A DNA stretch of 20,151 nucleotides from Thermoanaerobaculia bacterium. GTDB taxonomy: Bacteria > Acidobacteriota > Thermoanaerobaculia > UBA5066. Numbering within the stretch: the first letter of the stretch is position 1; every line of letters begins with the position of its first letter. The notes beneath the pieces are model-generated. The model was not told the DNA's origin, made no database searches, and saw only the letters and a list, made by a program, of their open reading frames with translations. Shown here in pieces: positions 1,581-20,151 of this stretch. Location: assembly GCA_038245905.1 (NCBI GenBank), contig JBBRRY010000048.1, positions 1 to 20,151 on the forward strand. The letters run 5' to 3'. A program made the translations under genes and the position numbers.

Positions 1581-1601
1581 GCGCGTGAGATCGTCGCCGG
1601 C

Positions 1602-5267: not shown

Positions 5268-6085
5268 GGCGGCCCGCCGCGGCTCTCACCGTGAACGCGC
5301 TCCTCATCCTCGGGGCGGCGCTGACGCTGGCCCCGCTCGTATGGATGGTCTCGGCGTCGGTCATGCCCACGGGCGAGGCCAGCTCATTCCCGCCAGGCTT
5401 CATCCCGAGCCGCATCACGTTCGAGCATTACCGCGATCTTTTCCAGCGTCTCTCGCTCGGGCGGGCGTTCGGAAGCAGCCTCCTCCTCGCGTCGTCGGTC
5501 ACGTTCTGCTCGGTGATCCTGAACTCGATGGCGGGCTATGCGTTCGCGAAGCTCCGGTTTCCCGGCCGCGACCGGTTGTTCCGGCTGCTTCTCCTCGGTA
5601 TGGTCATTCCCGTCCAGATCGCGATGCTCCCGCTCTTCCTCCTGATGCGGTCCCTCGGTCTCGTGAACACGTATCTCGGAGTCGTCCTTCCGTCGGCGGC
5701 GGGCATCTTCGGGATCTTCCTCGTCCGGCAGTTCGCGCGCTCCATCCCCGACGAGCTCCTCGACGCGGCGCGCGTGGACGGCGCGAGTGAGTGGATCATC
5801 TACCGGCGCCTCGTCCTGCCGCTCCTCAAGCCGGTGCTCGTGACGCTCGGGGTCTTCATGTTCCTCGGGACGTGGAACGATTTCCTCTGGCCGCTCGTCG
5901 TCCTGACCGACGACACGAAGTACACGCTTCCGGTCGCCCTCGCGAACCTCGTGGGCGAGCACGCCCAGGACACGGAGCTCATGATGGCGGGCTCGGTGCT
6001 GACGGTTCTGCCCGTTCTTCTCCTCTTTCTCGGGCTGCAGCGGGCGTACATCGAGGGCATCACGGCGGGCGGGCTGAAGGAATGA
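5264..6085 (+). CDS. Carbohydrate ABC transporter permease (MalG/UgpE-like)
   Basis: GTG 5264 overlaps the previous stop (GTGA) and has GGGAGG upstream. Motifs AGYAFAKLRFPGR, SIPDELLDAARVDGASEW, WNDFLWPL; ends GITAGGLKE. Confidence 0.95.
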   Translation: MRRPAAALTVNALLILGAALTLAPLVWMVSASVMPTGEASSFPPGFIPSRITFEHYRDLFQRLSLGRAFGSSLLLASSVTFCSVILNSMAGYAFAKLRFPGRDRLFRLLLLGMVIPVQIAMLPLFLLMRSLGLVNTYLGVVLPSAAGIFGIFLVRQFARSIPDELLDAARVDGASEWIIYRRLVLPLLKPVLVTLGVFMFLGTWNDFLWPLVVLTDDTKYTLPVALANLVGEHAQDTELMMAGSVLTVLPVLLLFLGLQRAYIEGITAGGLKE

Positions 6086-9000: not shown

Positions 9001-9099
9001 ATCCCGCGCGCGGCCACGGTGAACGGCAAGCCCGCGGAGATCCGGGGCGGGGAGATCCTCGTGCTCGAAGTTCCCGCGGAGGTCGTCGCGCGCCCATGA
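6082..9099 (+). CDS. Secreted multidomain protein: galactose-binding-like/CBM and discoidin (F5/8C)-like domains plus C-terminal six-hairpin glycosidase-like domain (1005 aa)
   Basis: ATG 6082 forms an ATGA overlap with the permease stop, followed by signal-like MTGAAILLLALLLPGGNA. The discoidin-like segment is LVDLGGLREFSGLVVDW...FTVEISSDARAW. The helical catalytic-like region has IQPGSRAYERSWIRDGA, ENDSHGEF, HSYWDD and WNQWAE. Confidence 0.75.
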   Translation: MTGAAILLLALLLPGGNAPWSPVASAGVSVVLAPMGTPAARSVRMAYDFHGGSGWAGMRRDVALDFPDEWTLSFRVRGAGTANTLEVKFLDASGENVWWARRENFVPTADGERITVRKRHVSFAWGPAGAQPLQRAAAVEIVLSAGTGGKGFLEVEEPLLAERAKLAALPEPGVTRTSAGILVDLGGLREFSGLVVDWPAKVPPRFTVEISSDARAWAAVRRVEHGGARRAFFHLPETEARLVRLSLPPGEWGTPRVAVKPVEWAPTVNEFVARVAKESPRGRFPRAFMGEQTYWTVAGVDVDTEEVLVSEDGALEPGKGSFSLEPFLFTGGRLVTWNDAAISHGLERGNLPIPTITWKAGDLDLDVTALVDGSVGSSVLSARYRVANRGGRAVRVRLFVAVRPFLVNPPTQFLNAPHGVSRIDALSFRGSTLTINGTRTVSATPAPVATGAAPFDAGPISDFLLEGDLPAAHEIRDETGLASGAFAWDLEIPPEGSRDAFLTVPLHGGALAPPASAFEGRLASVTASWAKEVDRVRFRIPSFAESLVATLKSNLAYVLINRDGPWIQPGSRAYERSWIRDGALTSSALLRLGHSEEVRDFLVAFAGKQFADGRIPCCVDARGADPVPENDSHGEFLFLAAEYFRFTGDAETLGALWPRIARTVAAIDALRHERRTAQYEAPGRRAYYGLLPESISHEGYSDKPVHSYWDDAFARKGLADAAELALSLGHPDEVRAFAAIRDEFEADLLASIARTIEENHLDTIPASVEKHDFDPTSTTAFLSPCGLQEKLPQAAVARTFDRYVREARERRDRPAARGPEAGAYTPYELRTVGALVRLGRKAEAHEMLAFFMKDRRPAAWNQWAEVVGRDPRAPRFVGDMPHTWVGTDFIRSFLDFFAIERDGDGARPASLLLGAGLPEEWVRAPGGVGVEGLRTIYGPLDLSVAASGPEVRARIAGVRVPPGGFALSWPLAGIPRAATVNGKPAEIRGGEILVLEVPAEVVARP

Positions 9100-11480
9100 A
9101 GAAGATCGCACCTCTCGCGGCCGGCGCGTACGGCCACTTCTCCGAAGACGGCCGGGAATACGTGATCACGGACCCGAGGACGCCGCGCCCGTGGGTCAAC
9201 GTCGTCGCCAACCCCCGCGCGGGATTCGTCGTGAGCCAGACGGGGAGCGGTTTCTCGTTCCTCGGGAACTCGCAGCTCGCAGTGGTGACGCGCTGGCAGC
9301 AGGACCTCGTGGAGGACCTCTCGGGAAAGTTCCTCTACGTGAAGGACCTGGAGAGCGGGGAGATCTGGTCTCTCTCCCCGGCGCCCGTCTGGGCGGCCGT
9401 CGACTCCTTCGCCTGCCGTCACGGGATGGGCTACACGGTGTTCGAGACGTCGCGCTCCGGAATCGAGGCCGAGTGGACGATGTTCTGTCCCGCCGAGGAG
9501 ACGGCCGAGGTCTGGCGGATCACGCTCCGCAACACGTCTCAGAGGCCCCGTATCCTCCGGCTCTTCGGAACCCTCGAATGGTGCTGCGGGGTCACGCCTT
9601 CGCCCCGCCGCGAGTTCGGGAAGCTCTTCATCGAGACGCGCTTCGACGAGGGGCGCAGCACGATCGTCGCGCGCAACCACATGTGGGAGGTCGCGTCCGA
9701 GAGGTTCGGCCACTGGAATACGACCTTCCCCTGGATCAGCGCCTTCTCGACGTCCGAGGCCCTCGTCTCGGCGCAGGGCGACAAACGGGCATTCGTCGGG
9801 CGTTACGGCAGCCTCCGCTCTCCGGCGGCGCTCGTCGGGACGGGGGGCGCCGCGGCATTCGGGAGGCACGAGGACCCGATCGCGGCGCTCGAGATCGAGG
9901 TCGCGCTCGCCGCGGGCGCGTCGCGGACGGTCGGCTTCTCCCTCGCGACGGCGGAGTCGGAAGACGCGGCGCTCGCGCTGGGCTCCCGCTTCCTTCGGGA
10001 CGACGAGAGTCGCCGTGCGCTCGCCGAGGTCACGGCGGGGTGGCGGAGCCGCCTGGCGTCCCACCGGATGGAGACGCCCGATCGGACGTTCGACGCCGTC
10101 GTGAACGACTGGGTACGCTATCAGGCGATCGCGGCGCGGCTCTGGGGGCGCTGCGGCTACTACCAGCAGAGCGGCGCCTTCGGCTTCCGCGACCAGCTCC
10201 AGGATTCCCAGGTCTACCTGACGATCGACCCCGCGCTGTGCCGCGAGCAGATCCGACTCCACGCCGGACACCAGTTCAAGGACGGCTCGGTCTTCCACTG
10301 GTGGCACCCCCTGACCGAGCAGGGGCTCGTCACGAAAATGACGGACGACCTCCTCTGGCTCGCGTTCGTGTCGGCGAACTACATGAAGGAGACGGGAGAC
10401 TTCTCGATCCTCCTCGACGCGGCACCCTTCCTCGACGAGGAGGGGGCGTTTCCCTTGACGGAGCACGTCGCGCGCGCGTTCTCCCGCGTCTTCTCGCGGA
10501 TGAGCCCGCGGGGGATCCCGCTCATCGGCGCCGGGGACTGGAACGACGGGCTCTCGGCGATGGGCCTCCTCGAGAAGGGCGAGTCCGTGTGGCTCGGGCA
10601 TTTCCTCGCGGGTCTCCTCGCCGACTGGAGCGAGATCCACCGCCGCGCGGGACGGACCGCGCTCGCGGACGACTTCGCCGCGCGGCGCGGAGCCCTCGTC
10701 GCTGCGCTGAACGCGCACGGCTGGGACGGCGGCTGGTACCGGCGCGGAACGCTCGACGACGGGTCGGTGCTCGGGGGCGCGGAGAACCGCGTCGGGAGGA
10801 TCTTCCTGAACGCGCAGACGTGGGCGATCCTGAACGACGTCGCGCCGCCCGACCGCGCGGCGGCGTGCCTCGCGGCCGTGAAGGAGCACCTCGTCACCGA
10901 AGCCGGCGCGCTCCTCCTCGCGCCCGCGTTCGACCGACCCGTCGCCGAGATCGGTTACATCACCCGGTACGCACCGGGCCTCCGGGAGAACGGCGGCGTC
11001 TACACGCACGCCGCGACGTGGGCGATCGCCGCGGCGGCGAAGGCGAAGGACGCGGCGCTCGTCGAGAGGCTCCTCCTCGCGATCGATCCCGCGAACAAGG
11101 ACTCCGAGCGCTACGAGGCTGAGCCCTATGTCCTCCCGGGCAACGTCGACGGGCCCGCCTCGCCGCACTTCGGGCGCGCGGGGTGGACGTGGTACACGGG
11201 CTCGGCGGCGTGGCTGCACCGCGTCGTCTCGGAATGGGTCTTCGGCGTGCGGCCGGACTGGGACGGCCTGACGATCGACCCGTGCCTTCCACCGTCCTGG
11301 AGGCGGGCGAAGATGGTCCGGCCGTGGCGAGGGGCGACGCTCGAGATCGAAATCGCCCGTGGCGCGCCGCCGCACGGGGGGACCTCGATCGAGGTCGACG
11401 GCGTCCCGCTCTCGGGAAACGTCCTCCCTCCGCCGGAAGGGCCGGGCGGAATGCGCCACGTCGCGGTGACCGTTCGATAG
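9096..11480 (+). CDS. GH94 glycoside phosphorylase (794 aa, cytoplasmic)
   Basis: ATG 9096 forms an ATGA overlap. Motifs YGHFSEDGREYVI, TPRPWVNV, CRHGMGYT, GFRDQLQD, DDLLWL, catalytic GDWNDG, GESVW, ENGGVYTHAATW and GWTWYTGSAAW are all GH94 hallmarks. No signal peptide. Confidence 0.93.
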   Translation: MKKIAPLAAGAYGHFSEDGREYVITDPRTPRPWVNVVANPRAGFVVSQTGSGFSFLGNSQLAVVTRWQQDLVEDLSGKFLYVKDLESGEIWSLSPAPVWAAVDSFACRHGMGYTVFETSRSGIEAEWTMFCPAEETAEVWRITLRNTSQRPRILRLFGTLEWCCGVTPSPRREFGKLFIETRFDEGRSTIVARNHMWEVASERFGHWNTTFPWISAFSTSEALVSAQGDKRAFVGRYGSLRSPAALVGTGGAAAFGRHEDPIAALEIEVALAAGASRTVGFSLATAESEDAALALGSRFLRDDESRRALAEVTAGWRSRLASHRMETPDRTFDAVVNDWVRYQAIAARLWGRCGYYQQSGAFGFRDQLQDSQVYLTIDPALCREQIRLHAGHQFKDGSVFHWWHPLTEQGLVTKMTDDLLWLAFVSANYMKETGDFSILLDAAPFLDEEGAFPLTEHVARAFSRVFSRMSPRGIPLIGAGDWNDGLSAMGLLEKGESVWLGHFLAGLLADWSEIHRRAGRTALADDFAARRGALVAALNAHGWDGGWYRRGTLDDGSVLGGAENRVGRIFLNAQTWAILNDVAPPDRAAACLAAVKEHLVTEAGALLLAPAFDRPVAEIGYITRYAPGLRENGGVYTHAATWAIAAAAKAKDAALVERLLLAIDPANKDSERYEAEPYVLPGNVDGPASPHFGRAGWTWYTGSAAWLHRVVSEWVFGVRPDWDGLTIDPCLPPSWRRAKMVRPWRGATLEIEIARGAPPHGGTSIEVDGVPLSGNVLPPPEGPGGMRHVAVTVR

Positions 11481-11500
11481 CCCGGGAAGAGCGCGGATCT

Positions 11501-12871
11501 TCAGACGTCGAGGGCGCCCCCCCGGCTCCGGATCACCTCGGCGAAGAAGCGCGCGCTCGCTTTCGGGGTGCGCCGTTGCGTCGCGAAGTCCACGTGGATG
11601 ATCCCGAAGCGCTTCGAGAAGCCGTGGGACCACTCGAAGTTGTCGAGGAGCGACCACGCGAAATATCCACGGACGTCGACACCCCGCGCGATCGCTTCGC
11701 GGGTCGCGCGGAGATGATCCCTGAGATAGGCCACGCGCAATGGATCCGCGATGCCGTCCGGCCCGGCTTCGGGAGGGTCGGGAAAGGCCGCTCCGTTCTC
11801 GGTGACGTAAAGAGGAATGTCTCCATAGCGCGACTTAATCCATGTCAGGGCGTCGAGGAGGCCCGGCGCGTAGACCTCCCAGTCCATCTCGGTGTGAAGG
11901 GCGCCGCTCTGCCGGACGCGAGAGGCGCGGGTGGGGAATGCCGCCGGGTCGTCCTTCACGACGCCGCGCGTGTAGTAGTTGACACCGAGGAAGTCGATGG
12001 GGCTAGGGATGAGCTCGAAGTCACCGTCGGGGAACGGCGACCAGGCCTCTCCGAACATTCCGGGCAGCTCGTCGGGGGTGCGGCCGAAGAAAACCGGGTC
12101 GAGAAACTGGCGGTTCATGTAGGCGTCGGCGCGGGTGGTGGCTCCGGCGTCGGCGGCGGACTCGGACGCCGCGAACTTCGGCTCGAGGTTGACGACGAGA
12201 CCGACGCGGCGCCCACCCTCGGCACGGCAGGCATTGACGGCCGCCGCATGCGCGCGGAGGAGATTGCGCGCTGCGATCGCCGCCTCGAAGAGGCTGCGGT
12301 GTCCCGGCGCGAGGATGCCGTGCAGGTAGCCGCCGTCCGTCACGACCCACGGCTCGTTCAGAGTCGCCCATGTGCCGACGCCGGGAAGCGCGCGAAAGAG
12401 GACGCTCGCGTAGTCCGCGAACCATCCGGCGATGTCGCGGTTCAGCCAGCCGCCCCGGTCCTCGAGAGCCGCCGGAAGGTCCCAGTGAAACAGAGTCGCG
12501 AACGGTTCGATTCCCGCGTGAAGGAGCGCGTCCACGAGGCGCCGGTAGAAATCCAGGCCCTTCTCGTTCACGCGTCCCAGGCCCTCCGGCAAGACGCGGC
12601 TCCAGGAAATGCTGAACCGGTAGGCATTGAGCGACAGGCTCCGCATGAGCCCGACGTCTTCTTCGTACCGGTTGTAGTGATCGCACGCGACGTCGCCGAC
12701 GTCGCCGCCCGTCACGAGGCCGGGTGTGTGCGCGAAGCGATGCCAGTTGCTCGGGCCGGCGCCGTCCGCGAGCGGGGAGCCCTCGATCTGATAGGCCGAG
12801 GTCGCGGCGCCCCAGAGAAAGTCCCTGGGGAATCCGGGGCTCGGCGACGAGCCATCGTGCGGGCGAGGCAA
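11501..12871 (-). CDS. bglA: GH1 beta-glucosidase
   Basis: FLWGAATSAYQIEG, ACDHYNRY, YRFSISWSR, TLFHWDLP, acid/base TLNEP, nucleophile YVTENG, and WSLLDNFEW. TTG start at 12871. Confidence 0.95.
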   Translation of the reverse strand: MPRPHDGSSPSPGFPRDFLWGAATSAYQIEGSPLADGAGPSNWHRFAHTPGLVTGGDVGDVACDHYNRYEEDVGLMRSLSLNAYRFSISWSRVLPEGLGRVNEKGLDFYRRLVDALLHAGIEPFATLFHWDLPAALEDRGGWLNRDIAGWFADYASVLFRALPGVGTWATLNEPWVVTDGGYLHGILAPGHRSLFEAAIAARNLLRAHAAAVNACRAEGGRRVGLVVNLEPKFAASESAADAGATTRADAYMNRQFLDPVFFGRTPDELPGMFGEAWSPFPDGDFELIPSPIDFLGVNYYTRGVVKDDPAAFPTRASRVRQSGALHTEMDWEVYAPGLLDALTWIKSRYGDIPLYVTENGAAFPDPPEAGPDGIADPLRVAYLRDHLRATREAIARGVDVRGYFAWSLLDNFEWSHGFSKRFGIIHVDFATQRRTPKASARFFAEVIRSRGGALDV

Positions 12872-12880
12872 GCGCTCAGT

Positions 12881-13870
12881 CTAGAGCAGTTCCTGCATCC
12901 GGCTCAGGATGTCCACGATCCGCTGCCAGTCGTTCTGGTCGCCTTGAAAGGATCTTTCGCGGCGCAGGACGTTGCTCGTGCGGCGCGCGTCCTCGAGCAA
13001 ACGCGAGACGGTCTGCTTCAGATCGCGCGCATCGAAGGAGTTCGTGTCGAGCGTCTGCCTCAGGCGATGCGTCTCGCTGCTGAAGCGGTCGAGGGGTTCC
13101 GGGGAGCGTGCGTCGCGATCGCCGCGGGGCATGGAGTCGCGGGTGCGCATGACGCGCTCGTCGAGCTCCCTGGCGAGCTGCCGCAGCTCCGGGATGTTCG
13201 GGGCATTGAAGCTCCCGCGCTCGTAAGTGCGCTCGAGCGAGGGGGGCGGCGGAACGGGCTGAACCGGCTGCCCTTCCAGACGGTCGGGAATGCCATTGCC
13301 GTTCCGATCGCTATCGCGGTGATCCCATTCGCCGTGGCCCTCGCGTCCGTAACGGACGTAAGGCGGCGGAAGCTGGACGTCGGCGCCGCGCAGGACCTGT
13401 TGCATGCGGCCCAGGATGTCGATCGCCGTGTTCCACAGATCGTATGTGCGCGGGAAGAGCTGCACGTTGACGACCTTCCGGTTCACGTCGCGCGCGCGTT
13501 TGGTCAGGTCCTCGACTTCGCGCCGAATGTCCCACGGCGAATCGAGATAGCCGTCCATGCGCTGATGAAAGTCGGATGTGCGGCGCGCGAAGTCCGAAAC
13601 CGATGCGAGGAGCCGCACCTGCGAACGGTCGCCGCGGGCGCCTCGGTACGCCTCTCGGTTGAGATCCTGGGCGATTTCGTCGAGCGTGTGGGCGAGCGAC
13701 GCCATCGTCTGGTACTGCCGGCCCCGGAGAGGATGGCGCGAATCGATCCGGTGGTAATCGTCTTCTCCGAAGTGGAACTGGAGAGAAACCTGTGCCGGAG
13801 CGGAAAGCGAGGGGATCAGCGCCGCGCATCCCACCCAGGCAAGGGCGCGCATGTTTGCCGGGAATCTCAT
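12881..13870 (-). CDS. Hypothetical secreted protein (329 aa) with two ~100-aa helical repeats
   Basis: ATG 13870 is preceded by GGAGG (13881-13877). The N-terminus is signal-like (MRFPANMRALAWVGCAALIPSLSAPA-Q) and an internal duplication is visible in the translation. The track start at 14014 overlaps the upstream gene and runs through the promoter, so it is unlikely. Confidence 0.8.
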   Translation of the reverse strand: MRFPANMRALAWVGCAALIPSLSAPAQVSLQFHFGEDDYHRIDSRHPLRGRQYQTMASLAHTLDEIAQDLNREAYRGARGDRSQVRLLASVSDFARRTSDFHQRMDGYLDSPWDIRREVEDLTKRARDVNRKVVNVQLFPRTYDLWNTAIDILGRMQQVLRGADVQLPPPYVRYGREGHGEWDHRDSDRNGNGIPDRLEGQPVQPVPPPPSLERTYERGSFNAPNIPELRQLARELDERVMRTRDSMPRGDRDARSPEPLDRFSSETHRLRQTLDTNSFDARDLKQTVSRLLEDARRTSNVLRRERSFQGDQNDWQRIVDILSRMQELL

Positions 13871-13982: not shown

Positions 13983-14585
13983 CTAATCCCGCCAGACGCA
14001 ATAGACATGCTCAACGCCGTACTGGCTCTTGCTCTCGATTCCCCGAAAGAGATGCCAGTTCAATCCGGCAAAGTGCGCTTCAATATCATGAGAAGCGAGA
14101 GCGAGGTCGGGCACATCGAGCCCCTTGTCCCGATTGTGTTGCAACTCTCGCGTCGTATCAGAGAACGGCGTGAACAGCACGATGCACAGTTTCCTTCGGA
14201 ATGACCCGACCGCGCCTGTCAGGATCTTTGACCAGTTGTAGTTATGCTCGAGTACATGTCGAAGCAGAATGCCGTCGACCTCGCTTCGGTACGTGGTCAG
14301 ATCGGCCACTTTCTCGGCGAACGGCGTCTGGCTGCCATCGATGCCGATATACGTGCCGCCGCAGAATCGCCGGAATCCTCCCGCTCCACATCCCCAGTCT
14401 TCGATTTCGCGGCACCCGACGAGAAATGCGGCCGCCATGTAGTACGTCGTCGCGCCTCCGTACATCATGCCGCCCGCCGGTAGCCTCCGACCCTCGTAGA
14501 ACCGATTCCATTTCCCGGTATTCACTTCGGCGTCGTAGTCGGCCGGCTCAATCGCTCTTCCGGGTGTCGTCGGTGTCCCTATCAC
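13983..14585 (-). CDS. Class I SAM-dependent methyltransferase
   Basis: Motif I IEDWGCGAGG, motif II YIGIDGS, then VDGILLRHVLEH. The GTG start overlaps the upstream stop (GTGA at 14585-14582). Confidence 0.8.
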   Translation of the reverse strand: MIGTPTTPGRAIEPADYDAEVNTGKWNRFYEGRRLPAGGMMYGGATTYYMAAAFLVGCREIEDWGCGAGGFRRFCGGTYIGIDGSQTPFAEKVADLTTYRSEVDGILLRHVLEHNYNWSKILTGAVGSFRRKLCIVLFTPFSDTTRELQHNRDKGLDVPDLALASHDIEAHFAGLNWHLFRGIESKSQYGVEHVYCVWRD

Positions 14586-15274
14586 GGCAGCCTCGGTTGG
14601 CTGGTGTTTGCGCGACGTCTGTTCAGCGCCCGGCGAACTGCAGTCACGAGGTAGTCACGGTCCACCTCGACGTCGTTGGTCATGTTCGTGGCGTGACGCC
14701 GCCAGGTCAGGACGACGTTCTGGTGTTGTCGCACTCCGCAGAGTGCCTCCGTGACCCTTGCGAGGAAATCGGTATCCTGGGCGTGACGCAGTTCGGGATC
14801 GAAGAGTCCAACGCGCTCGAACACCGAACGGCGGAACAGCATCGAGCCGAGTGCCGGATAGTGTTCCGGCGGCCACCGGGGCGATTCGGCGCCGCTCGGC
14901 TTCTCGTCGGACAGGAAGACGATCCGGGTTAGGCCCCAAAGCACGGCGATGTCCGGCGCGGCGGAGAGCATCGCGCTCTCGGCGGTGAGGCGATCGGGCG
15001 ACCAGAGGTCGTCTGCGTCGAGGAAGCCCAATATGTCACCGCGAGCTCCGGCCAGCCCACGGTTCAGAGCCGCCGGCAGTCCCTCGTTTTGCTCCGACCG
15101 GATCACACGGACCGCGTCTCCGCACGCAGCGGCTTCCTCAGCCGTGCCATCGGTTGACCCGTCATCCACGACGATCAGCTCGACCGGACAGGGCTGCTCC
15201 AGGACCGAACGGATGGCATCGCGAATGAACCTGCGACCGTTGTAAACGGGAATGATCACGCTGAGTCCGCTCAC
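14582..15274 (-). CDS. GT2 family glycosyltransferase (GT-A fold), 230 aa
   Basis: SVIIPVYNG, IVVDDGSTDGT, GLPAALNRG, FLDADDLW. Start is GTG 15274 in a GTGA overlap. Confidence 0.93.
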   Translation of the reverse strand: MSGLSVIIPVYNGRRFIRDAIRSVLEQPCPVELIVVDDGSTDGTAEEAAACGDAVRVIRSEQNEGLPAALNRGLAGARGDILGFLDADDLWSPDRLTAESAMLSAAPDIAVLWGLTRIVFLSDEKPSGAESPRWPPEHYPALGSMLFRRSVFERVGLFDPELRHAQDTDFLARVTEALCGVRQHQNVVLTWRRHATNMTNDVEVDRDYLVTAVRRALNRRRANTSQPRLP

Positions 15275-15942
15275 TTGGGCGTCCTCTGACGTTTCAGGTG
15301 GCCCCGGATCACGTCCAGATACTGCTCGCGTATGCCCTCGGCGGTGCGGGTCATGTTGGCCTCGTGAACGCGGCGGTGAAACACGATCCTCTCTAGTATC
15401 GCCGACTGCGCGCCGCCCTCCAGGGCCCGCGCGTACCATTCCATGAACTCGCCTACCGTTCCGCCCTCCCTAAACACTCCAATTCGGTCGAAGAGCGCGC
15501 GGCGCACGAGTGCGGCGCAGGCGGAATAGGCGGGGAACGGCTCCGCACGCACGCGCCAGCGGCGATCGCCGTCCGGACTCGAAAACTCGACGCCGTGTCC
15601 GAAGACCATATCGACCTCGCTGCGCGCGGCGAGAACGGCCGTCTGACGCTCGAGCTTGTCCGGCACCCAGAGATCGTCTGCATCCAGGAACGCGATCCAC
15701 TCCGCCCGGCTGGCCTGGATACCGCGATTGCGCGCGCCTCCAAGGCCGCGGCGTTCCTGATGAACGGCGTGCACGTCGCCGCCGTAAGAGTCGATGATCG
15801 ACGCCGTTGCGTCTGTCGAGCCATCGTTCACCACGACGAGCTCAACCGGGATCGACTGTGCGAGAACAGACTCTATGGCCTCGTGCACGAAACGCCCGGC
15901 GTTATGTGCCGGAATGACGACGCTGACAGCGGGAGCGGTCAT
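15271..15942 (-). CDS. GT2 family glycosyltransferase, 223 aa
   Basis: VSVVIPAHNA, VVNDGSTDAT, GGARNRG, IAFLDADDLW. Start is ATG 15942 in an ATGA overlap. Confidence 0.93.
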   Translation of the reverse strand: MTAPAVSVVIPAHNAGRFVHEAIESVLAQSIPVELVVVNDGSTDATASIIDSYGGDVHAVHQERRGLGGARNRGIQASRAEWIAFLDADDLWVPDKLERQTAVLAARSEVDMVFGHGVEFSSPDGDRRWRVRAEPFPAYSACAALVRRALFDRIGVFREGGTVGEFMEWYARALEGGAQSAILERIVFHRRVHEANMTRTAEGIREQYLDVIRGHLKRQRTPK

Positions 15943-16640
15943 GCGGGTGAATCCGTTTTGCGCAGGGCGCGCATGCGCCCCCGTTCGAACGCCCTCTTCA
16001 ACGCGGCGAAGGGCGCCCGGTCGACGGCCGTCTCGTCCCGCGTGACGTTTCCTGCATGAAAGCGCCTCTGGCAGACGACGTGGGCGTGACGGTCCACGAC
16101 GAGCCGCCGTTCCGTGATCCGAAGCATGAGGTCCAGGTCCTCTCCCACGCGAAGGGTGGGATCGAAGTCTCCGACCTCGTCGAAGACACTCCGCCGGAAA
16201 AGCATCGAGCCGACCGAGAGGGCCCATTGCGGGCGGCCATGCCAGTCCTCTCGCGGCGGTCTTCCACCGGTGCCGACGACATACGTCGACTGCCCCCAGG
16301 CAACGGCGGCGCCTGGCCTGGCGGCGAGGCTGTCCAGATGAGAGGAAAGGGCGGTCACCGGCCACAGGTCGTCCGCATCCAGAAACGCGATGAGCGGTTG
16401 AGCCGCCCTCCTGATGCCGGCGTTGCGCGCCGCGGCCGGACCGAGGTTGCCCTGGCGGATGGAAACGACGCGCTCAGAGAACCGCCTCACGATTTCGGGT
16501 GTCGCGTCGGTCGAACCGTCGTCGACGATGATGATCTCCCGCGGCGTGTGTTCCTGTGCCAGGACGCTCTCGATCGCCTCCGTCAGGTACCCGGCGCCGT
16601 TGTAGACCGGTACGATCGCGCTCACGCCATCGCCGTTCAC
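15939..16640 (-). CDS. GT2 family glycosyltransferase, 233 aa
   Basis: VSAIVPVYNG, IIVDDGSTDAT, GPAAARNAG, IAFLDADDLW, GEDLD. Start is GTG 16640 in a GTGA overlap with the kinase stop. Confidence 0.93.
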   Translation of the reverse strand: MNGDGVSAIVPVYNGAGYLTEAIESVLAQEHTPREIIIVDDGSTDATPEIVRRFSERVVSIRQGNLGPAAARNAGIRRAAQPLIAFLDADDLWPVTALSSHLDSLAARPGAAVAWGQSTYVVGTGGRPPREDWHGRPQWALSVGSMLFRRSVFDEVGDFDPTLRVGEDLDLMLRITERRLVVDRHAHVVCQRRFHAGNVTRDETAVDRAPFAALKRAFERGRMRALRKTDSPA

Positions 16641-17671
16641 GGACCGAGCCCCATGTGACGCGCCCGGACCAGAAGTTCGGCGTCGATCAGCTCGAGATTG
16701 CGCGCGTGATCGCGGGTCAGGTGAAGTCGATAGCACGGCACGGTCAGGATGCGTGAAAGGGCCTCGAGCTTTTTCCGCTCGTCGCCGGGCAGCTGCCTCA
16801 AGGAAGAGGGCAAGATGCGGCGGAGCGCCTCGCCCGGCGAAATGGCCTCGAGCTTCGGCTCTGCTCCGTCACCGCGAGACGGTTGAAAGACGGCGGCGAG
16901 CGGCGCGGAGTCGAGCATGGACGAGCTCGAGACACGAAGAAACGATTTCTCGGTTCGATCGTCGGGCTGCTGGAAGACCGACGCCCCCGCGGGCAGACCA
17001 TGCTCGAGGTCGCCGGCGGCGAGCTTTCCCGAGCCGTACACGGAATGGACGAGCGGCAGCGGCGTTGCCGCTTCCAGGAGAACGTAATCGTCGCCGAGAT
17101 AGGCGAATCCCGCGTCGAGGGAGCGCAACGCGAGGGTCGACTTACCCGCTCCGCCCGGCCCCACGATGAGAGCCGCGACCCCATGCTTGGCGATCGCGGC
17201 GCCATGGCAGAGCATCTGCTTGCGTGCGGTGAACCACGAGTCGAGCAGCCGCAGGAACGGAGCGGCCGCAATCCAGATCGGAAGGGCCGCGGCGTCGCGG
17301 AACCAAACGCCCGCCTGTCCTCTGTCTCGTCCGTAGAGGCTCACCACGCCGCCGATTGGATCGAAGAAGAACATGCCGGCGCCGTCCGAAGCGCGAACGG
17401 GCTCCCGCCGCGACCATCGCTTGGCGACCTTCCACTCGGGGCACGCCCACGACAGGGGCACCGGCTCCCCGTCCCAGGCGAAGATCGTGACGTCCGGTGG
17501 GCGCGTCTCGGGCACCACCCGGTGCCTCAGGGCCGCGGCGAGCAGCTGCGACAGCGTTTCCGTTCCGGCACACACTCGGAACACGCCGCCCGCGAGCGCG
17601 AAGTGAAAGACCGGAAAGTGTCGGGATCGGGCCGCAATGTCGTCGAGAATGTCGAAGAAGCGCTCGGACAT
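16637..17671 (-). CDS. HPr kinase-like P-loop kinase (HprK-related, similar in motif layout to lasso-peptide kinases)
   Basis: CHGAAI...LIVGPGGAGKSTL (His plus Walker A), followed by FAYLGDDYVLL (DD signature). Confidence 0.85.
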   Translation of the reverse strand: MSERFFDILDDIAARSRHFPVFHFALAGGVFRVCAGTETLSQLLAAALRHRVVPETRPPDVTIFAWDGEPVPLSWACPEWKVAKRWSRREPVRASDGAGMFFFDPIGGVVSLYGRDRGQAGVWFRDAAALPIWIAAAPFLRLLDSWFTARKQMLCHGAAIAKHGVAALIVGPGGAGKSTLALRSLDAGFAYLGDDYVLLEAATPLPLVHSVYGSGKLAAGDLEHGLPAGASVFQQPDDRTEKSFLRVSSSSMLDSAPLAAVFQPSRGDGAEPKLEAISPGEALRRILPSSLRQLPGDERKKLEALSRILTVPCYRLHLTRDHARNLELIDAELLVRARHMGLGP

Positions 17672-17703
17672 CCGTGTGCGCTGAGGCTAATGCGTCGCCA
17701 CGA

Positions 17704-18132
17704 TCAGCCGCGTCCCGGAACGTGAGGCCAGCCCACGTCGCTGACGTCGTGGACCGGATCGAGCTTGATCAGTTCGGCCATGTCTTCAAATTTCTCCAGG
17801 CACGGCGTGCCATACGGCTGGCGAGATATCGACGGGGGCGGCGGAACCGCCCGGGCGGGTGAGTCCGGGTCGCCAGGTCCCAGGAGACCGACGGCCAGGA
17901 GATCGGCAACGAAGGACCGGATCTCGGCTTCCACGGATTCCGGCGCGGGTGAGCCCCCTGCCCGATACCAGGCAGCAATGGCATCGACGTCCATATGAGT
18001 GGTCAACATCTGCCAGATCTCACAGGCCGTGCCCCGCATGCTGTAGTAGGAGCCGTTGACGAAATCGATCGCGATGACTTCGCCGTCGACCGTTTGAAAC
18101 GCGATGCGCCGGTCGTCGATTTCGTAAGGCAT
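17704..18132 (-). CDS. PqqD-family/RiPP recognition element (RRE) protein with a C-terminal peptide extension (142 aa)
   Basis: ATG 18132 has GAGGTG upstream. The RRE pattern is three strands (AFQTVDGEVIAIDFVNGSYYSM) then helices (GTACEIWQML, VDAIAAWY, VEAEIRSFVADLLAVGLL). A Pro-rich linker and the tail YGTPCLEKFEDMAELIKLDPVHDVSDVGWPHVPGRG follow. Confidence 0.85.
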   Translation of the reverse strand: MPYEIDDRRIAFQTVDGEVIAIDFVNGSYYSMRGTACEIWQMLTTHMDVDAIAAWYRAGGSPAPESVEAEIRSFVADLLAVGLLGPGDPDSPARAVPPPPSISRQPYGTPCLEKFEDMAELIKLDPVHDVSDVGWPHVPGRG

Positions 18133-18141
18133 GACACCTCG

Positions 18142-18151
18142 ATCATAGAAT
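18142..18151. promoter_or_regulatory. Putative bidirectional promoter: overlapping -10-like hexamers
   Basis: In the 28-bp divergent spacer, TAGAAT (+, 18146-18151) and TATGAT (-, 18147-18142) overlap by 2 bp. Each lies 9 nt from its start codon. Confidence 0.5.
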
Positions 18152-18160
18152 CGCGCCCGG

Positions 18161-18856
18161 GTGTCAGCAACTGTTCGTGTGAGCGCGGTCGTCACGGCAT
18201 TTCAGTGCGAGGCGTTTCTCGCCGAGGCCGTACGGAGCGTCCTCGGGCAGAGCGTTCCCCCGGACGAGGTCCTCGTCGTGGACGACGGCTCCACAGATGG
18301 CACCGCCGCCGTCGCGCGGTCCTTCGGCGAGCGGGTCCGCGTCGTCGAACGCCGGAACGGCGGGCCGGGCGCCGCGCGAAACACGGGGTTAGCCGAGGCG
18401 CGCGGGGAGTGGATCGCTTTCCTCGACGGCGATGACGCGTGGCTCGGCGGAAAGACGGAGGCCCAGCTGGACGCGACCGCGGGCGGGGCGGATCTCGTCT
18501 TCGGATTTGCCCGGAACGTGAAGGCCCCGCGTGGGGTGGCGCTCGACACGGGCGTCCTGGATGCCGGCCCGCCAATCCCCGGCCTCGTGGCCGGCGCGAT
18601 GCTTGCCCGGCGCGAAGCCTTCGCGCGCGTTGGCCCATTCCCGGAAAATCTCTCCGTCGGCGAGTTCGTGGACTGGCATGCCCGGGCCTGCGAGGCCGGG
18701 ATCGCACGGGTCGTCCTTCCCGAAGTCGTCCTTCTCCGCCGGATCCACGGCGGCAACAGGACTCTCGTCTCGCGCGACGCGCCGGGTGACTACGTGCGCG
18801 TCCTGAAGGCAGCGCTCGACCGGCGGCGCGCCGCGGGGCCCGGAGAGCAGGCGTGA
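18161..18856 (+). CDS. GT2 family glycosyltransferase, 231 aa
   Basis: VSAVVTAFQ, VLVVDDGSTDGT, GPGAARNTG, IAFLDGDDAW, RRIHGGN. Confidence 0.92.
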   Translation: MSATVRVSAVVTAFQCEAFLAEAVRSVLGQSVPPDEVLVVDDGSTDGTAAVARSFGERVRVVERRNGGPGAARNTGLAEARGEWIAFLDGDDAWLGGKTEAQLDATAGGADLVFGFARNVKAPRGVALDTGVLDAGPPIPGLVAGAMLARREAFARVGPFPENLSVGEFVDWHARACEAGIARVVLPEVVLLRRIHGGNRTLVSRDAPGDYVRVLKAALDRRRAAGPGEQA

Positions 18857-20151
18857 CGGGGCGGGAGGCGATCCGCGGGTACGCCGCCTACTACATGGGC
18901 TCCCGGCGGCCGCTCCTCGTTTCTCTCGCCGCCGCGGTCGCGCAGCCGATCGCTCTCATCCCGATCCCGTGGCTCGCCCGGCGCGCCTTCGACCGGCTCA
19001 TCCCGGCAGGCGATGTCGGCGGCCTCGTGGCGACGGGCGCTCTGATCCTCCTCCTGACGCTGGCACAGGCCGTGCTGGCGCTCTGGGCGCGCGCACTCAC
19101 GCTCGACGTCACGAAGCGGGCGATCGCCCGCATGCGCGAGGACCTCGTCGCGAAGTTCTACGCCTTGCCGCGATCCTTCCTCGCGACGGCCGATCGGGCG
19201 GCGTTCCACACGCGAGCGGTGGAGGACACGGAGCGTGTGGACGTCATGACGAACGGGCTCGTGACGCAGTTCCTGCCGGCCGCGCTCGTCGGAGCCGCCC
19301 TCGGCCTCGTACTCCTGTGGCTGTCGCCGCTCCTCTTCGGCGTCACCGTCCTCTTCGCGCCCGCCGTATGGCTGACAAGCCGCGTGCTCGGGGTTCGCGT
19401 CCGGCGGGATATTGCCCGCTACCGCGGCGATTTCGAAGTTTTCAGCCGGGGCATCCTCTTCGTCCTCCAGAAGAGGGACCTCACGCAGGCGCAGGCGGCC
19501 GAGGATCAGGAGCGCGAGACTCAGGCGCGCCAGATCGATCGCCTGAGGACGACGAGCGGCCGCATGGCGTGGCTGAACACGGCGTACTCGCTGCTCCACG
19601 GCTTCCTGTTCGCATCGACAGGGATCGTGGTCCTCGTCGTGGGCGGGATCGAGGTCGTGAAGGGGCGAATGACCGGCGGCACGCTCGCGTCGTTCTTCGT
19701 CACACTTGGCCTCTTGCGCGCGCAGATGGCAGCCCTCTCGACGAGCCTTCCTCAGATCATCGGAGGGCGCGCCTCGCTTGAAGCCGTTCTCGAGCTCCTG
19801 CGGCTTCCTGCTCCCGCGTCCGCGGCGGCCCTTCCGCCTCTCGCGTTCCGTGGCGGGATCGCTCTCGAGAACGTCGTCTACGGGTACGACCCGGCGCGCG
19901 AACCCGTCCTCAGGGGCGTGTCTCTCACCCTCGCGCCCGGCGAGGCGGTCGCGCTCGTGGGCCGGAACGGAGCCGGAAAAACGACGCTCTTGAATCTCGT
20001 CCTCGGCTTCGCCGAGCCGTGGTCGGGCCGTCTTCTCGCGGACGGTCTCCCGTACGGAACCTTCGACGCCGTCTCGCTGCGAAGGAGGACGGGCACGGTG
20101 CTCCAGGAACCTCTCGTCGTCCGAGGGACCCTCGCCGAGAACGTGACCTAC
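18853..20151 (+). CDS. ABC exporter, fused permease/ATP-binding protein (MsbA-like type), 3'-truncated by the window edge
   Basis: Absent from the ORF track because it has no stop in the window. Manual translation from GTG 18853 (GTGA overlap) gives MTGREAIRGYAAYY..., hydrophobic helices, EDTERVD, then IALENVVYGY, Walker A GRNGAGKTT (19960-19986) and Q-loop VLQEP. Confidence 0.92.
   Translation, partial: MTGREAIRGYAAYYMGSRRPLLVSLAAAVAQPIALIPIPWLARRAFDRLIPAGDVGGLVATGALILLLTLAQAVLALWARALTLDVTKRAIARMREDLVAKFYALPRSFLATADRAAFHTRAVEDTERVDVMTNGLVTQFLPAALVGAALGLVLLWLSPLLFGVTVLFAPAVWLTSRVLGVRVRRDIARYRGDFEVFSRGILFVLQKRDLTQAQAAEDQERETQARQIDRLRTTSGRMAWLNTAYSLLHGFLFASTGIVVLVVGGIEVVKGRMTGGTLASFFVTLGLLRAQMAALSTSLPQIIGGRASLEAVLELLRLPAPASAAALPPLAFRGGIALENVVYGYDPAREPVLRGVSLTLAPGEAVALVGRNGAGKTTLLNLVLGFAEPWSGRLLADGLPYGTFDAVSLRRRTGTVLQEPLVVRGTLAENVTY

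Follow-up and report, generated by a model that had tools for sequence, protein, structure and literature searches.

A widely conserved, cyclase-free cassette comprising an RRE fusion protein, an HprK-like kinase and small glycosyltransferases in a Thermoanaerobaculia bacterium

Introduction

Among known systems, the gene cassette described here comes closest to a family found in Bacillota, the linear polyphosphorylated peptides (LPPs; LppA/K/B/S/D/N; Popov et al., Nat Commun 2026, PMC13381572). According to that report, the LPP core set consists of an RRE, a kinase resembling HprK, an NTP transferase and a pump of the MsbA-like type, and polyphosphorylation of Ser3 was shown experimentally. 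For lasso kinases, a His-Lys-Asp-Asp motif is described in a review (PMC9266682). Both the LPP family and phosphorylated lasso peptides have a tailoring set to which the cassette analyzed here is related. It is real, widely conserved and previously uncharacterized. The initial annotation knew of no characterized product for this gene set; the absence of one holds only in part, since the related LPP family was published in 2026 (PMC13381572).

Results

Within the window, i.e. the whole stretch of 20,151 nucleotides that was analyzed, eight genes at positions 13983-20151 run outward from a 28-bp spacer, as the initial annotation had described. Each of them was found in the ORF list at the respective position:

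13983..14585, minus strand: methyltransferase-like gene, 200 aa, final gene of the leftward operon
14582..15274, minus strand: GT2 glycosyltransferase GTa, 230 aa from the GTG at 15274, soluble, PF00535 5.5e-32
15271..15942, minus strand: GT2 GTb, 223 aa, soluble, PF00535 4.1e-33
15939..16640, minus strand: GT2 GTc, 233 aa, adjoining the kinase on its 3' side, PF00535 4.4e-33
16637..17671, minus strand: HprK-like P-loop kinase Kin1, 344 aa, PF27840 'ScmC'
17704-18132, minus strand: PqqD/RRE protein, 142 aa, PqqD 1.8e-8
17863..18132, minus strand: RRE domain of this protein (PqqD-like, lasso-B1-like), residues 1-90, from the PqqD match, AF2, Foldseek and the profile against the PDB
17707..17814, minus strand: fused C-terminal segment, residues 107-142, from alignments, AF2 and the motif profile
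18133..18160, no strand: 28-bp spacer from which the RRE gene and GTd diverge, read from the sequence
18161..18856, plus strand: GT2 GTd, 231 aa, opening the rightward operon, PF00535 1.2e-30
18853..20151, plus strand: MsbA-type ABC exporter, TMD and NBD (ABC_membrane, ABC_tran), cut by the contig end at residue 433
20011..20151, no strand: contig-join overlap, 141 nt, reverse complement of the end of the second contig

The annotated 4-bp start/stop overlaps (kinase/GT2, GT2/GT2, GT2/GT2, GT2/methyltransferase and GT2/ABC) follow from the ORF coordinates. The RRE and kinase genes do not overlap but are separated by a 32-nt gap. In the closest relative (L003), the homologous divergent spacer measures 113 bp, compared to 28 bp in the window. 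Pfam scans of the 17 window ORFs revealed no lasso cyclase, B2 peptidase, radical SAM, YcaO, lanthipeptide synthetase or pqq gene, in agreement with the initial annotation.

The cluster runs on into a second contig (C2) of the same assembly via an exact 141-nt end overlap, and synteny with L003 spans the join (89% nucleotide identity over 4.7 kb). C2 carries the remaining part of the ABC exporter, a second RRE-kinase-GT2 set, a GT-C membrane glycosyltransferase, an NTP_transf_5 nucleotidyltransferase, a peptidase and a TPR membrane protein. The cassette is duplicated in this genome (two RRE-kinase pairs), and the whole cluster comprises five GT2s, one PMT_2 GT-C, the MsbA-type exporter and a multi-span TPR protein; methyltransferase, GT-C enzyme, peptidase and exporter extend the cassette here. 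Retrieval of the sequence past position 20151, a check that had been suggested, disclosed no downstream lasso set of cyclase, peptidase and precursor: the 8 kb continuation harbors neither an Asn-synthase-like nor a transglutaminase gene. The description as an RRE-containing cassette without a cyclase was upheld for cluster and continuation. In the genome, whose completeness is 96.4%, only two weak PF00733 matches (36.6 and 21.6 bits) were detected, both on other contigs, PF13471 gave no match, and the only PqqD domains are the two of the cluster.

The 142-aa protein is composed of a lasso-B1-like RRE domain, a linker and a C-terminal leader-like strand followed by a near-invariant segment. 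The RRE domain was predicted with AF2 pLDDT values of about 90-97. Its best Foldseek matches were TbiB1 (5v1v/5v1u) and TfuB1 (6jx3), with TM scores (TMt) of 0.85-0.89, and its profile matched TbiB1 (6.3e-17), PbaB1 (8.9e-11) and LppB (8.8e-6) in the PDB. The leader-like strand reads [YF]xxPxL (Y107-x-x-P110-x-L112 in the window protein) and is followed by about 25 residues of the form DMxxLLLLDPxHxVxxxGWP, represented here by D117-M, L-D125-P126-x-H128 and G134-W135-P136 with a short tail. D117, D125, P126, H128, G134 and W135 were invariant in the homologue alignments. Behind a linker modeled less well, AF2 placed a strand at 112-115 (P-x-L-E-K) with confidence (pLDDT of this block 86-89); values were 54-57 for the last ~20 residues and about 55 for the conserved tail. 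A profile of the C-terminal motif retrieved 3,136 protein clusters from public data at E<=1e-3, and 1,827 with the stricter threshold of E<=1e-10. Among the best 150 clusters, 100 were at least 133 aa long and carried the motif C-terminally. Using a strict regular expression, the motif was found in 33 of 38 kinase-seeded loci, each time C-terminally in the RRE protein. Among 192 sequences, the fused segment contained no invariant Ser or Thr. Only one position, preceding D-M, is mostly occupied by hydroxyl residues (T 123, S 31, E 20, D 10, N 5, A 2, V 1); it could be a helix N-cap and is E in the window's own protein. The tails past GWP are devoid of Ser and Thr in 79 of the 192 sequences. Of the annotated RRE-peptide fusion, the extension is real; the peptide, however, is a near-invariant motif lacking an invariant Ser/Thr rather than a variable core.

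Kin1 scored 22.3 bits against Hpr_kinase_C, below the cut-off of 33.3 bits, and PF27840 (Pfam 38.1, 'ScmC') was precomputed on 28 of 36 homologues. The best PDB matches of the kinase-family profile were HprK proteins (E 3e-5). H156, K177, D194 and D195 are invariant and match the His-Lys-Asp-Asp motif of lasso kinases. The AF2 model (pLDDT 92.7) showed in Foldseek a two-domain fold like that of PEP carboxykinase (E 4e-10); due to this resemblance over both domains, a small-molecule substrate is possible. Complex prediction for the kinase and the RRE fusion yielded a score of 0.51 (runs 0.51, 0.51 and 0.59; best of three controls 0.03), a level at which wrong passes outnumber right ones unless the contact was likely beforehand. 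With a contact agreement of at least 81% and a partner pLDDT of at least 74, the prediction weakly favors contact between the two proteins.

The four GT2 genes of the window matched PF00535 with E values from 1e-30 to 4e-33. GTa and GTb possess no TM-like segment, the PDB relatives of GTc are generic GT-A enzymes, and GTd is 91% identical to its L003 counterpart. The top NCBIfam matches of the GT2s were MftF-like (52-81 bits, compared to a cut-off of 280). The 200-aa protein matched neither Pfam nor NCBIfam. It is probably a class I SAM-dependent methyltransferase, judged from its ESM-Atlas look-alikes (Methyltransf_23/11 class I SAM methyltransferase clusters, 0.95-0.98) and a weak methyltransferase match in the PDB (E 0.37). 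The ABC exporter has no peptidase domain, and its best NCBIfam matches (NHLP exporter, MsbA) were both far under the cut-offs. The full-length L003 exporter comprises 574 aa and is 97% identical to the window copy.

To tabulate the neighborhoods of homologues, as had been advised, 38 kinase-seeded and 80 RRE-seeded loci (metagenome) of other organisms were surveyed. Linkage of RRE, kinase and GT2 proved strongly conserved with both seeds. The order RRE fusion, HprK-like kinase and small GT2(s), in many cases with NTP_transf_5 behind them, recurs in the two sets of loci far above chance expectation. It extends over numerous phyla (Acidobacteriota, Alphaproteobacteria, Actinomycetota, Chloroflexota, Planctomycetota, Bacteroidota and others). 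The kinase-seeded loci contained an RRE in 36/38 cases (immediately 5' of the kinase in 29/38), a GT2 in 35/38 (immediately 3' in 31/38) and NTP_transf_5 in 23/38. In RRE-seeded loci with sufficient room, the kinase adjoined in 36 of 45 and lay elsewhere within the locus in five more, and a GT2 was present in 24/24. Four of the 45 had no detectable kinase; three of these (L064-L066) share identical gene spacing, and L064 has a GT4-like gene where the kinase would stand. GT4 genes and an epimerase occur in some relatives. With at least 5 kb downstream, RRE-seeded loci contained NTP_transf_5 in 11/16 and an ABC gene in 8/16 cases. The conserved fourth partner is the NTP_transf_5 nucleotidyltransferase, located past the window. 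By contrast, ABC genes (6/38), PMT_2 (1/38) and the methyltransferase (1/38, L003) were rare in kinase-seeded loci. The methyltransferase is an accessory gene outside the conserved cassette, and neither methylation nor ABC export, both part of the pathway in the initial annotation, is conserved. The minimal cassette L004 consists only of RRE, kinase and three GT2s, flanked by housekeeping genes. A conserved separate small ORF was not found: among 1,563 small ORFs, no family spanned three or more loci.

Discussion

We assign a probability of roughly one half to the reading that the locus is a cyclase-free, RRE-based cassette for the modification of a peptide or small protein, in which the fused segment is the substrate and is decorated by the kinase, GT2 and NTP_transf_5 enzymes. 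The [YF]xxPxL strand may dock back onto the RRE in cis, as judged from secondary structure and pLDDT, while the near-invariant segment of ~25 residues and the short tail would stay flexible. The C-terminal segment presented in this way would be the substrate of the adjoining HprK-like kinase, acting on a putative acceptor residue. Soluble GT2s would attach sugars, and NTP_transf_5, where present, might act on the phosphate. The end product, a phospho- and glyco-modified peptide or small protein, may be exported; it is probably a phosphorylated, glycosylated peptide, a chemistry that we infer from the gene content. Several observations speak against this reading: a near-invariant 'core' is unusual among RiPPs, and the segment lacks an invariant Ser/Thr, with many tails being hydroxyl-free past GWP. 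The PEPCK-like fold of the kinase, the kinase-less RRE-seeded loci and the weak pass of the complex prediction likewise count against it.

It is conceivable, though rather unlikely, that the RRE fusion is an adaptor or regulatory scaffold, whose cis-bound strand and DPxH...GWP residues recruit or activate the kinase, GT2s and NTP transferase, and that these enzymes act on another molecule, e.g. an unrecognized peptide or protein, a glycan or a lipid-linked intermediate. The near-invariance of the segment without an invariant hydroxyl residue fits this role, as does the PEPCK-like two-domain fold of the kinase. The weakly predicted kinase-RRE contact would be expected of an adaptor too, and the enzymes of LPP and lasso systems receive their substrate from the RRE-leader complex (PMC13381572). 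On the other hand, an RRE groove filled in cis would have no space for another leader, the vicinity of the cassettes contains no conserved small ORF, and L004, with only RRE, kinase and three GT2s, offers no obvious alternative substrate gene.

Clearly improbable is an ordinary cell-surface polysaccharide or glycoconjugate locus, whose GT2s, GT-C, ABC and TPR proteins would serve glycan assembly and export, with an incidental or regulatory RRE-kinase pair. Its basis is the content of the own cluster (five GT2s, PMT_2 GT-C, MsbA-type exporter and multi-span TPR protein), the GT4 genes and epimerase of some relatives, and the situation of LPP clusters in capsule loci (PMC13381572). However, RRE fusion, kinase and GT2 travel together over phyla without polymerase, flippase or sugar-nucleotide genes (e.g. 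L004). The GT2 in every RRE-seeded locus with room indicates a specific rather than an incidental link, and PMT_2 and ABC genes are infrequent in kinase-seeded loci.

True membership of the LPP family is very unlikely. The RRE, HprK-like kinase, NTP transferase and MsbA-type exporter are shared and both systems are cyclase-free (PMC13381572), but Pfam scans of the cluster revealed no SpI/SipW-like peptidase, a separate LppA-type precursor with the YxxPxVLxHQxIxFETxxS motif was not found, the RRE profile is nearer to TbiB1 than to LppB, and the cassette spans many phyla while its authors describe the LPP family as confined to Bacillota. Hardly any credence is due to a lasso-peptide cluster, phosphorylated and glycosylated, with cyclase, B2 peptidase and precursor located elsewhere: the RRE domain has its closest matches among lasso B1 proteins and paeninodin- and pseudomycoidin-type clusters typically carry the kinase/NTP_transf_5 pair (PMC9266682), but the continuation and the nearly complete genome gave the negative results reported above, the PF00733 matches of five related genomes that could be placed (not every contig number was matchable to the locus records) fall outside the fetched loci, L004 has none, and the match of L013 lies ~12 kb from the kinase, beyond housekeeping genes.

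With LPPs (PMC13381572), the cassette has in common a cyclase-free RRE-dependent pathway, an RRE-binding motif of the [Y/W]xxPx[L/V] type and GT-rich surroundings. It differs by the fusion of recognition motif and presumed substrate to the RRE, by a near-invariant instead of a variable segment past the motif, by the lack of a SpI-like leader peptidase, by small GT2s in its conserved core, and by its RRE type and wide distribution. With phosphorylated or glycosylated lasso peptides (paeninodin PadeK, ThcoK/SyanK, pseudomycoidin PsmK/PsmN), it shares a B1-type RRE, an HprK-like kinase with the His-Lys-Asp-Asp motif, an ABC exporter and a nucleotidyltransferase-like enzyme, which in those systems acts after phosphorylation (PMC9266682). 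What separates it from them is the absence of lasso cyclase, B2 peptidase and separate precursor, and a fused segment without a conserved Ser, C-terminal or elsewhere. The NCBIfam 'HPr-rel-A system' (TIGR04352/TIGR04353) and SynChlorMet (ScmC/ScmD) also combine an HprK-like P-loop protein with a PqqD-like protein, and the kinase carries the 'ScmC' family PF27840; however, the cassette misses every curated cut-off widely and has no radical SAM/SPASM enzymes. In borosin-type fusions, a precursor-like peptide stands at the C-terminus of a pathway protein and recognition takes place inside one chain. The C-terminal position of the peptide is the same here, but the partner is a recognition domain instead of a catalytic enzyme and the chemistry differs. 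The mycofactocin pathway comprises the RRE protein MftB, a conserved MftA core and the GT2 MftF. Although the cluster contains no radical SAM MftC, MftD/E or separate MftA, it resembles this pathway in RRE dependence, in a core that is conserved rather than variable and in the presumed decoration by small GT2s.

Gene organization of the cassette and its continuation

The window corresponds to the entire contig C48 (20,151 bp), which belongs to an assembly of 3.8 Mb with a completeness of 96% (96.4%). A Pfam scan of the ORFs revealed a glucan utilisation locus which is unrelated to the cassette and forms its left boundary, followed by a single gene.

3-12871: beta-glucan/oligoglucan utilisation locus (left 13 kb of the window)
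12881-13870, minus strand: likely signal-peptide protein without Pfam or NCBIfam match, directly downstream of the methyltransferase-like gene

The utilisation locus encodes a TonB-dependent receptor (cut), a PF10091 glucoamylase-like enzyme, a GH94 phosphorylase, a GH1 beta-glucosidase, a sugar ABC importer (SBP and two permeases) and a 1005-aa protein without Pfam match. The likely signal-peptide protein probably does not belong to the cassette, since no homologue was found in the closest relative (L003, an Acidobacteriota MAG contig) or in any other related locus. The ORF coordinates confirmed that eight genes are situated from position 13983 onward, as described in the initial annotation, and also the 4-bp overlaps joining the kinase, three GT2 and methyltransferase-like genes on one side and the GT2 and ABC exporter genes on the other. 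The divergent spacer between both groups was likewise confirmed to comprise 28 bp (18133-18160); its counterpart in the closest relative is 113 bp long (L003:6668-6780). As 28 bp are too short for two separate promoters, at least one promoter must be located within a coding region or at a greater distance upstream.

Over its last 141 nt, the window is identical to the reverse-complemented end of contig C2 from the same assembly. L003, whose kinase is 81% identical to that of the window, is unbroken across this join and shows 89% nucleotide identity over 4.7 kb. On C2, the ABC exporter gene is completed. It is accompanied by genes for another RRE protein and another kinase (the second of each), a fifth GT2, a GT-C membrane glycosyltransferase (PMT_2), a nucleotidyltransferase of the NTP_transf_5 family (135 bits), a Peptidase_MA_2 protein and a multi-span TPR protein, and 4-bp overlaps recur at several junctions. 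Because the genes of the window continue onto C2, the cluster comprises approximately 15 genes on 14 kb. The NTP-transferase and the second RRE-kinase set were absent from the initial account, which had named a lasso peptide set just downstream as evidence against its proposal; the continuation contains neither a cyclase nor a transglutaminase-like peptidase.

All five GT2 genes (four in the window and one on C2) scored above the gathering threshold of PF00535 (103-115 bits). Their relatives in the PDB are generic GT-A enzymes, which are uninformative on the acceptor, and no useful PDB relative was obtained for NTP_transf_5. For the putative methyltransferase, named after language-model look-alikes, the Pfam and NCBIfam scans gave no match and a sequence search of the PDB no support. 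Among the cluster proteins, clear membrane segments were predicted only for the ABC exporter, the GT-C enzyme, the TPR protein and, with one segment, the peptidase. The RRE proteins, kinases, GT2s, methyltransferase and NTP_transf_5 are predicted to be soluble; the second kinase contains a single hydrophobic stretch of borderline score.

Conserved linkage and distribution

Seeding with the kinase yielded 38 loci from Acidobacteriota, Alphaproteobacteria, Actinomycetota, Chloroflexota, Planctomycetota, Bacteroidota, Gemmatimonadota, Bipolaricaulota and others. A homologue of the 142-aa RRE protein (RRE-fusion) was present in 36 of these loci, GT2 in 35 and NTP_transf_5 in 23, and PMT_2 in a single one. 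The RRE gene lies directly upstream of the kinase in 29 and a GT2 gene directly downstream in 31 of the 38 loci. The smallest form, found in Allosphingosinicella (L004), consists of RRE-kinase-GT2-GT2-GT2 flanked by housekeeping genes. Independent seeding with the RRE-fusion in metagenomes resulted in 547 confirmed stretches, 80 of which were kept. Where at least 900 nt were available downstream, the kinase was adjacent in 36 of 45 loci, present elsewhere in the locus in five and undetected in four. With at least 2.2 kb, GT2 was found in 24 of 24 loci; with at least 5 kb, NTP_transf_5 was found in 11 and the ABC exporter in eight of 16.

The conserved set is thus composed of the RRE-fusion, the kinase and one or more GT2s, with or without NTP_transf_5. 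Linkage among homologues, as anticipated in the initial annotation, was recovered from both seeds, but its full gene list was not. Methylation and export proved over-specific as general parts of the system, since the methyltransferase occurs in 1/38 and the ABC exporter in 6/38 kinase-seeded loci, the latter in no more than half of the RRE-seeded loci of sufficient length.

Some loci deviate in arrangement. In L052, an epimerase gene is inserted between RRE and kinase. Three of the four RRE-seeded loci without a detected kinase (L064-L066) have identical gene spacing; in L064 a GT4-like glycosyltransferase (L064:2490-3893) follows the RRE-fusion in the kinase's place, and the 7 kb downstream contain no detectable kinase.

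Within the phylum, 13 of the 301 genomes sampled, one of them the genome studied here, gave full-length kinase matches (E<1e-40). This denominator contains one unpublished genome (G152) with only a weak P-loop match, which none of the conclusions depends on. At the same threshold, none of three genomes of the same genus gave a full-length match. The GC3 values of the leftward operon range from 0.70 to 0.81, compared to 0.83-0.93 for the flanking genes. Together with the patchy distribution, the lower GC3 gives only a hint of horizontal transfer.

The RRE-fusion protein

In the AF2 model of the 142-aa protein (38 homologues, pLDDT 84), residues 1-90 form a standard RRE, whose best structural matches in the PDB are the lasso B1 proteins TbiB1 and TfuB1 (Foldseek TMt 0.85-0.89). 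A profile comparison with the PDB gave TbiB1 (6.3e-17), the paeninodin-type PbaB1 (8.9e-11), LppB (8.8e-6) of the linear polyphosphorylated peptides (LPP) of Bacillota, and PqqD (0.03); the RRE remained below the cut-offs of the NCBIfam lasso_PqqD models. After a variable linker, the protein contains the motif Y107-x-x-P110-x-L112. It follows the pattern via which lasso and LPP leaders bind their RREs, described as [Y/W]xxPx[L/V/I/F/A] (PMC13381572). The model shows a confident beta-strand at residues 112-115 (pLDDT of the block 86-89) which is separated from the RRE domain by a weaker linker, and we infer that this leader-like strand may pair with the RRE sheet in cis. It is followed by D117-M...L-D125-P126-x-H128...G134-W135-P136 and a short basic/Pro/Ala-rich tail, with a pLDDT of ~55. 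In alignments of the homologues, D117, D125, P126, H128, G134 and W135 are invariant.

A profile of the C-terminal motif (39 positions) was searched against 1.84 billion proteins clustered at the 50% identity level. It matched 3,136 representative clusters at E<=1e-3 and 1,827 at E<=1e-10, and 100 of the best 150 matches are 133-227 aa long and carry the motif at the very C-terminus. From these numbers and lengths it can be concluded that the fusion of RRE and motif is the rule and that the family is large. Split forms with stand-alone motif peptides were considered and discarded, since most short matches retain part of RRE helix 3 and are thus N-truncated fragments; a few matches of 47-52 aa could, judging by their sequences, be free peptides.

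Two RRE proteins of Bacteroidota (L005:7118-7495 and L006:9404-9781) have kept [YF]xxPxL...DMEDLVLL and are devoid of DPxH...GWP; L005 also harbors a full-length RRE-fusion copy and two kinases. The 77-aa protein P0081 from a 564-nt contig, in which a response-regulator-like N-terminus is joined to the DPIHEVDETGWP motif, is probably an assembly chimera.

The kinase

The alignment of the kinase family revealed invariant H156, K177 (within the P-loop G-x-G-G-x-G-K-S), D194 and D195. This is the same His-Lys-Asp-Asp set that is described as essential for lasso-tailoring kinases (PMC9266682). In the Pfam scan, the kinase of the window matched Hpr_kinase_C only below the cut-off, and the best PDB matches of the kinase profile are HprK proteins (E 3e-5). 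The AF2 model (pLDDT 92.7) resembles ATP-dependent PEP carboxykinase (Foldseek E 4e-10, TMq 0.5-0.6), whose fold superfamily includes HprK. The alignment of the modelled kinase (16637-17671) with PEP carboxykinase spans both domains and extends beyond the P-loop domain shared with HprK. PF27840, named ScmC in Pfam 38.1, was assigned by precomputed annotation to 28 of 36 kinase homologues. None of eight kinases tested reached the curated cut-offs of HprK-related kinase A or B, ScmC or true HprK; for TIGR00679 (bona fide HPr kinase/phosphorylase), the kinase of the window scored 20.3 bits versus a cut-off of 240.

Two distant kinase homologues of ~400 aa (P0032 and P0035) contain both PF27840 and PF05402, so kinase-PqqD fusions exist. 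In L040 (9900-12550), the kinase and GT2 genes are split into several short fragments, representing pseudogenes or long-read frameshift errors.

Prediction of a complex of kinase and RRE-fusion gave a weak pass of 0.51, a score at which most passes are false if the interaction is not already likely (best of three controls, 0.03; contact agreement at least 81%; partner pLDDT at least 74).

Possible substrate and mechanism

For a separate precursor, 1,563 small ORFs around the kinases were clustered, yielding no family that spans three or more loci. The motif [YWF]xxPx[LVIF] occurs in 59 of these ORFs, which by a rough estimate is about chance level. The best-supported reading, drawn by analogy, is that the RRE-fusion offers its own C-terminal segment to the enzymes encoded next to it. 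Its RRE would keep the leader-like strand bound in cis, comparable to the complexes of RRE and leader formed in trans in lasso peptide and LPP pathways, the kinase would phosphorylate, NTP_transf_5 would act on the phosphate and the GT2s would add sugar. This chemistry would be expected from the precedents of LppK, lasso kinases and PsmN: Ser is polyphosphorylated by LppK (PMC13381572) and lasso kinases, and hexose is added to phospho-Ser by PsmN (PMC9266682).

The weak point of the mechanism is the acceptor residue. No Ser or Thr is invariant in the aligned fused segment, and 79 of 192 tails after GWP contain neither residue. In the same number of sequences, the position before D-M is occupied by T (123), S (31), E (20), D (10), N (5), A (2) and V (1); it is Glu in the protein of the window and Thr in the second copy. 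Interpretation of this position (80% S/T, 16% D/E) as a phosphosite with phosphomimetics was set aside and is not relied on, because S, T, D and N also act as helix N-caps, a helix starts just after, and A and V occur. The mostly hydroxyl-bearing position may be nothing more than a helix cap. For these reasons, two other readings have to be considered. The RRE-fusion might be an adaptor rather than a substrate, which is considered less likely, and the substrate of the kinase may be a small molecule.

Since the segment is nearly invariant, the different phyla may share a single fixed product, resembling a cofactor, signal or surface component more than a variable antibiotic. A more far-reaching reading is put forward tentatively, with a probability of roughly 0.3: the proteins would be very widespread, multi-phylum 'self-leadered' carriers composed of an RRE, their own recognition strand and the invariant acceptor segment DPxHxVxxxGWP, on which a phosphate-linked glycan would be assembled by kinase, NTP-transferase and soluble GT2s. 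This would result in a glycoconjugate primed by a protein, or in a molecule of fixed structure resembling a cofactor or signal, not in a variable antibiotic peptide.

RREs are used to detect peptide natural products irrespective of their class. The RRE-fusion described here is accompanied by a kinase and glycosyltransferases, forming a compact system of three or four genes, and its very large family includes thousands of sequence clusters from metagenomes of soil, freshwater and other sources. Should the tail be the substrate, these proteins would represent a large and so far unrecognised family of ribosomal products with phospho-/glyco-modification, and the LPP logic would reach far beyond Bacillota. 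Their conserved structure would hint at a physiological role (cofactor, signal, surface component) rather than at warfare.

Relationship to known systems

The cassette is neither a lasso cluster, an HPr-rel-A system (NCBIfam), a SynChlorMet cassette nor a PQQ pathway. With lasso clusters, it shares the B1-type RRE. Neither the window nor the continuation gave a Pfam match to a lasso cyclase (Asn-synthetase-like); in the whole genome (96.4% complete), PF00733 gave two weak matches only (36.6 and 21.6 bits on contigs C5 and C52), PF13471 (B2 peptidase) none, and the only two PqqD domains are those of this cluster. No Asn-synthase-like gene could be placed inside the fetched loci of five related genomes, for which some contig numbers were unmatched to locus records. 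A separate precursor with a YxxPxL leader was not found, the motif being seen only as RRE fusion. The initial proposal of a modification system which is based on an RRE, lacks a cyclase and includes a fused peptide was right in these respects.

HPr-rel-A and ScmC models were scored with the kinase and RRE of the window, six further kinases and two further RREs. The kinases reached 18.6-40.5 bits versus a cut-off of 200 for TIGR04352, and the RREs ~20-21 versus 35 for TIGR04353. The SynChlorMet models gave 16-25 bits versus 125 (TIGR04249) and ~21 versus 100 (TIGR04248), and the radical SAM/SPASM maturases of that cassette have no radical SAM counterpart in this cluster. The broader domain PF27840 'ScmC' is assigned by precomputed annotation. 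No description of SynChlorMet or HPr-rel-A systems was found in the literature searches. The PQQ pathway is dismissed, as pqqA, B, C or E were not detected beside PqqD in scans of the window and continuation.

Among described systems, the LPP family comes closest; it is cyclase-free and, according to its authors, restricted to Bacillota (PMC13381572). The initial statement that no product has been characterised for this gene set holds only in part, being partly pre-empted by this work. No description of the cassette or of an RRE-leader fusion of its kind was found in the literature searches; the cluster lists in the supplement of PMC13381572 might include related non-Bacillota or fused forms. 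Both systems are similar in outline, with an HprK-like kinase beside the RRE and no cyclase, and the NTP transferase and MsbA-like exporter of LPP may be set beside NTP_transf_5 and the ABC exporter, a comparison of LppN and LppD made by description only. However, the cassette fails on three defining LPP features. LPP clusters encode an SpI (SipW-like) leader peptidase, whereas Pfam revealed only Peptidase_MA_2 and no signal-peptidase family among the 15 cluster ORFs. They possess a separate LppA with an N-terminal YxxPxVLxHQxIxFETxxS and a variable C-terminus, in contrast to the exclusively fused [YF]xxPxL...DPxH...GWP, and their RRE is discrete, not fused to a leader-like strand and presumed core. 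What sets the cassette apart from LPP is thus the fusion of RRE, leader and core, together with GT2s as part of its conserved set.
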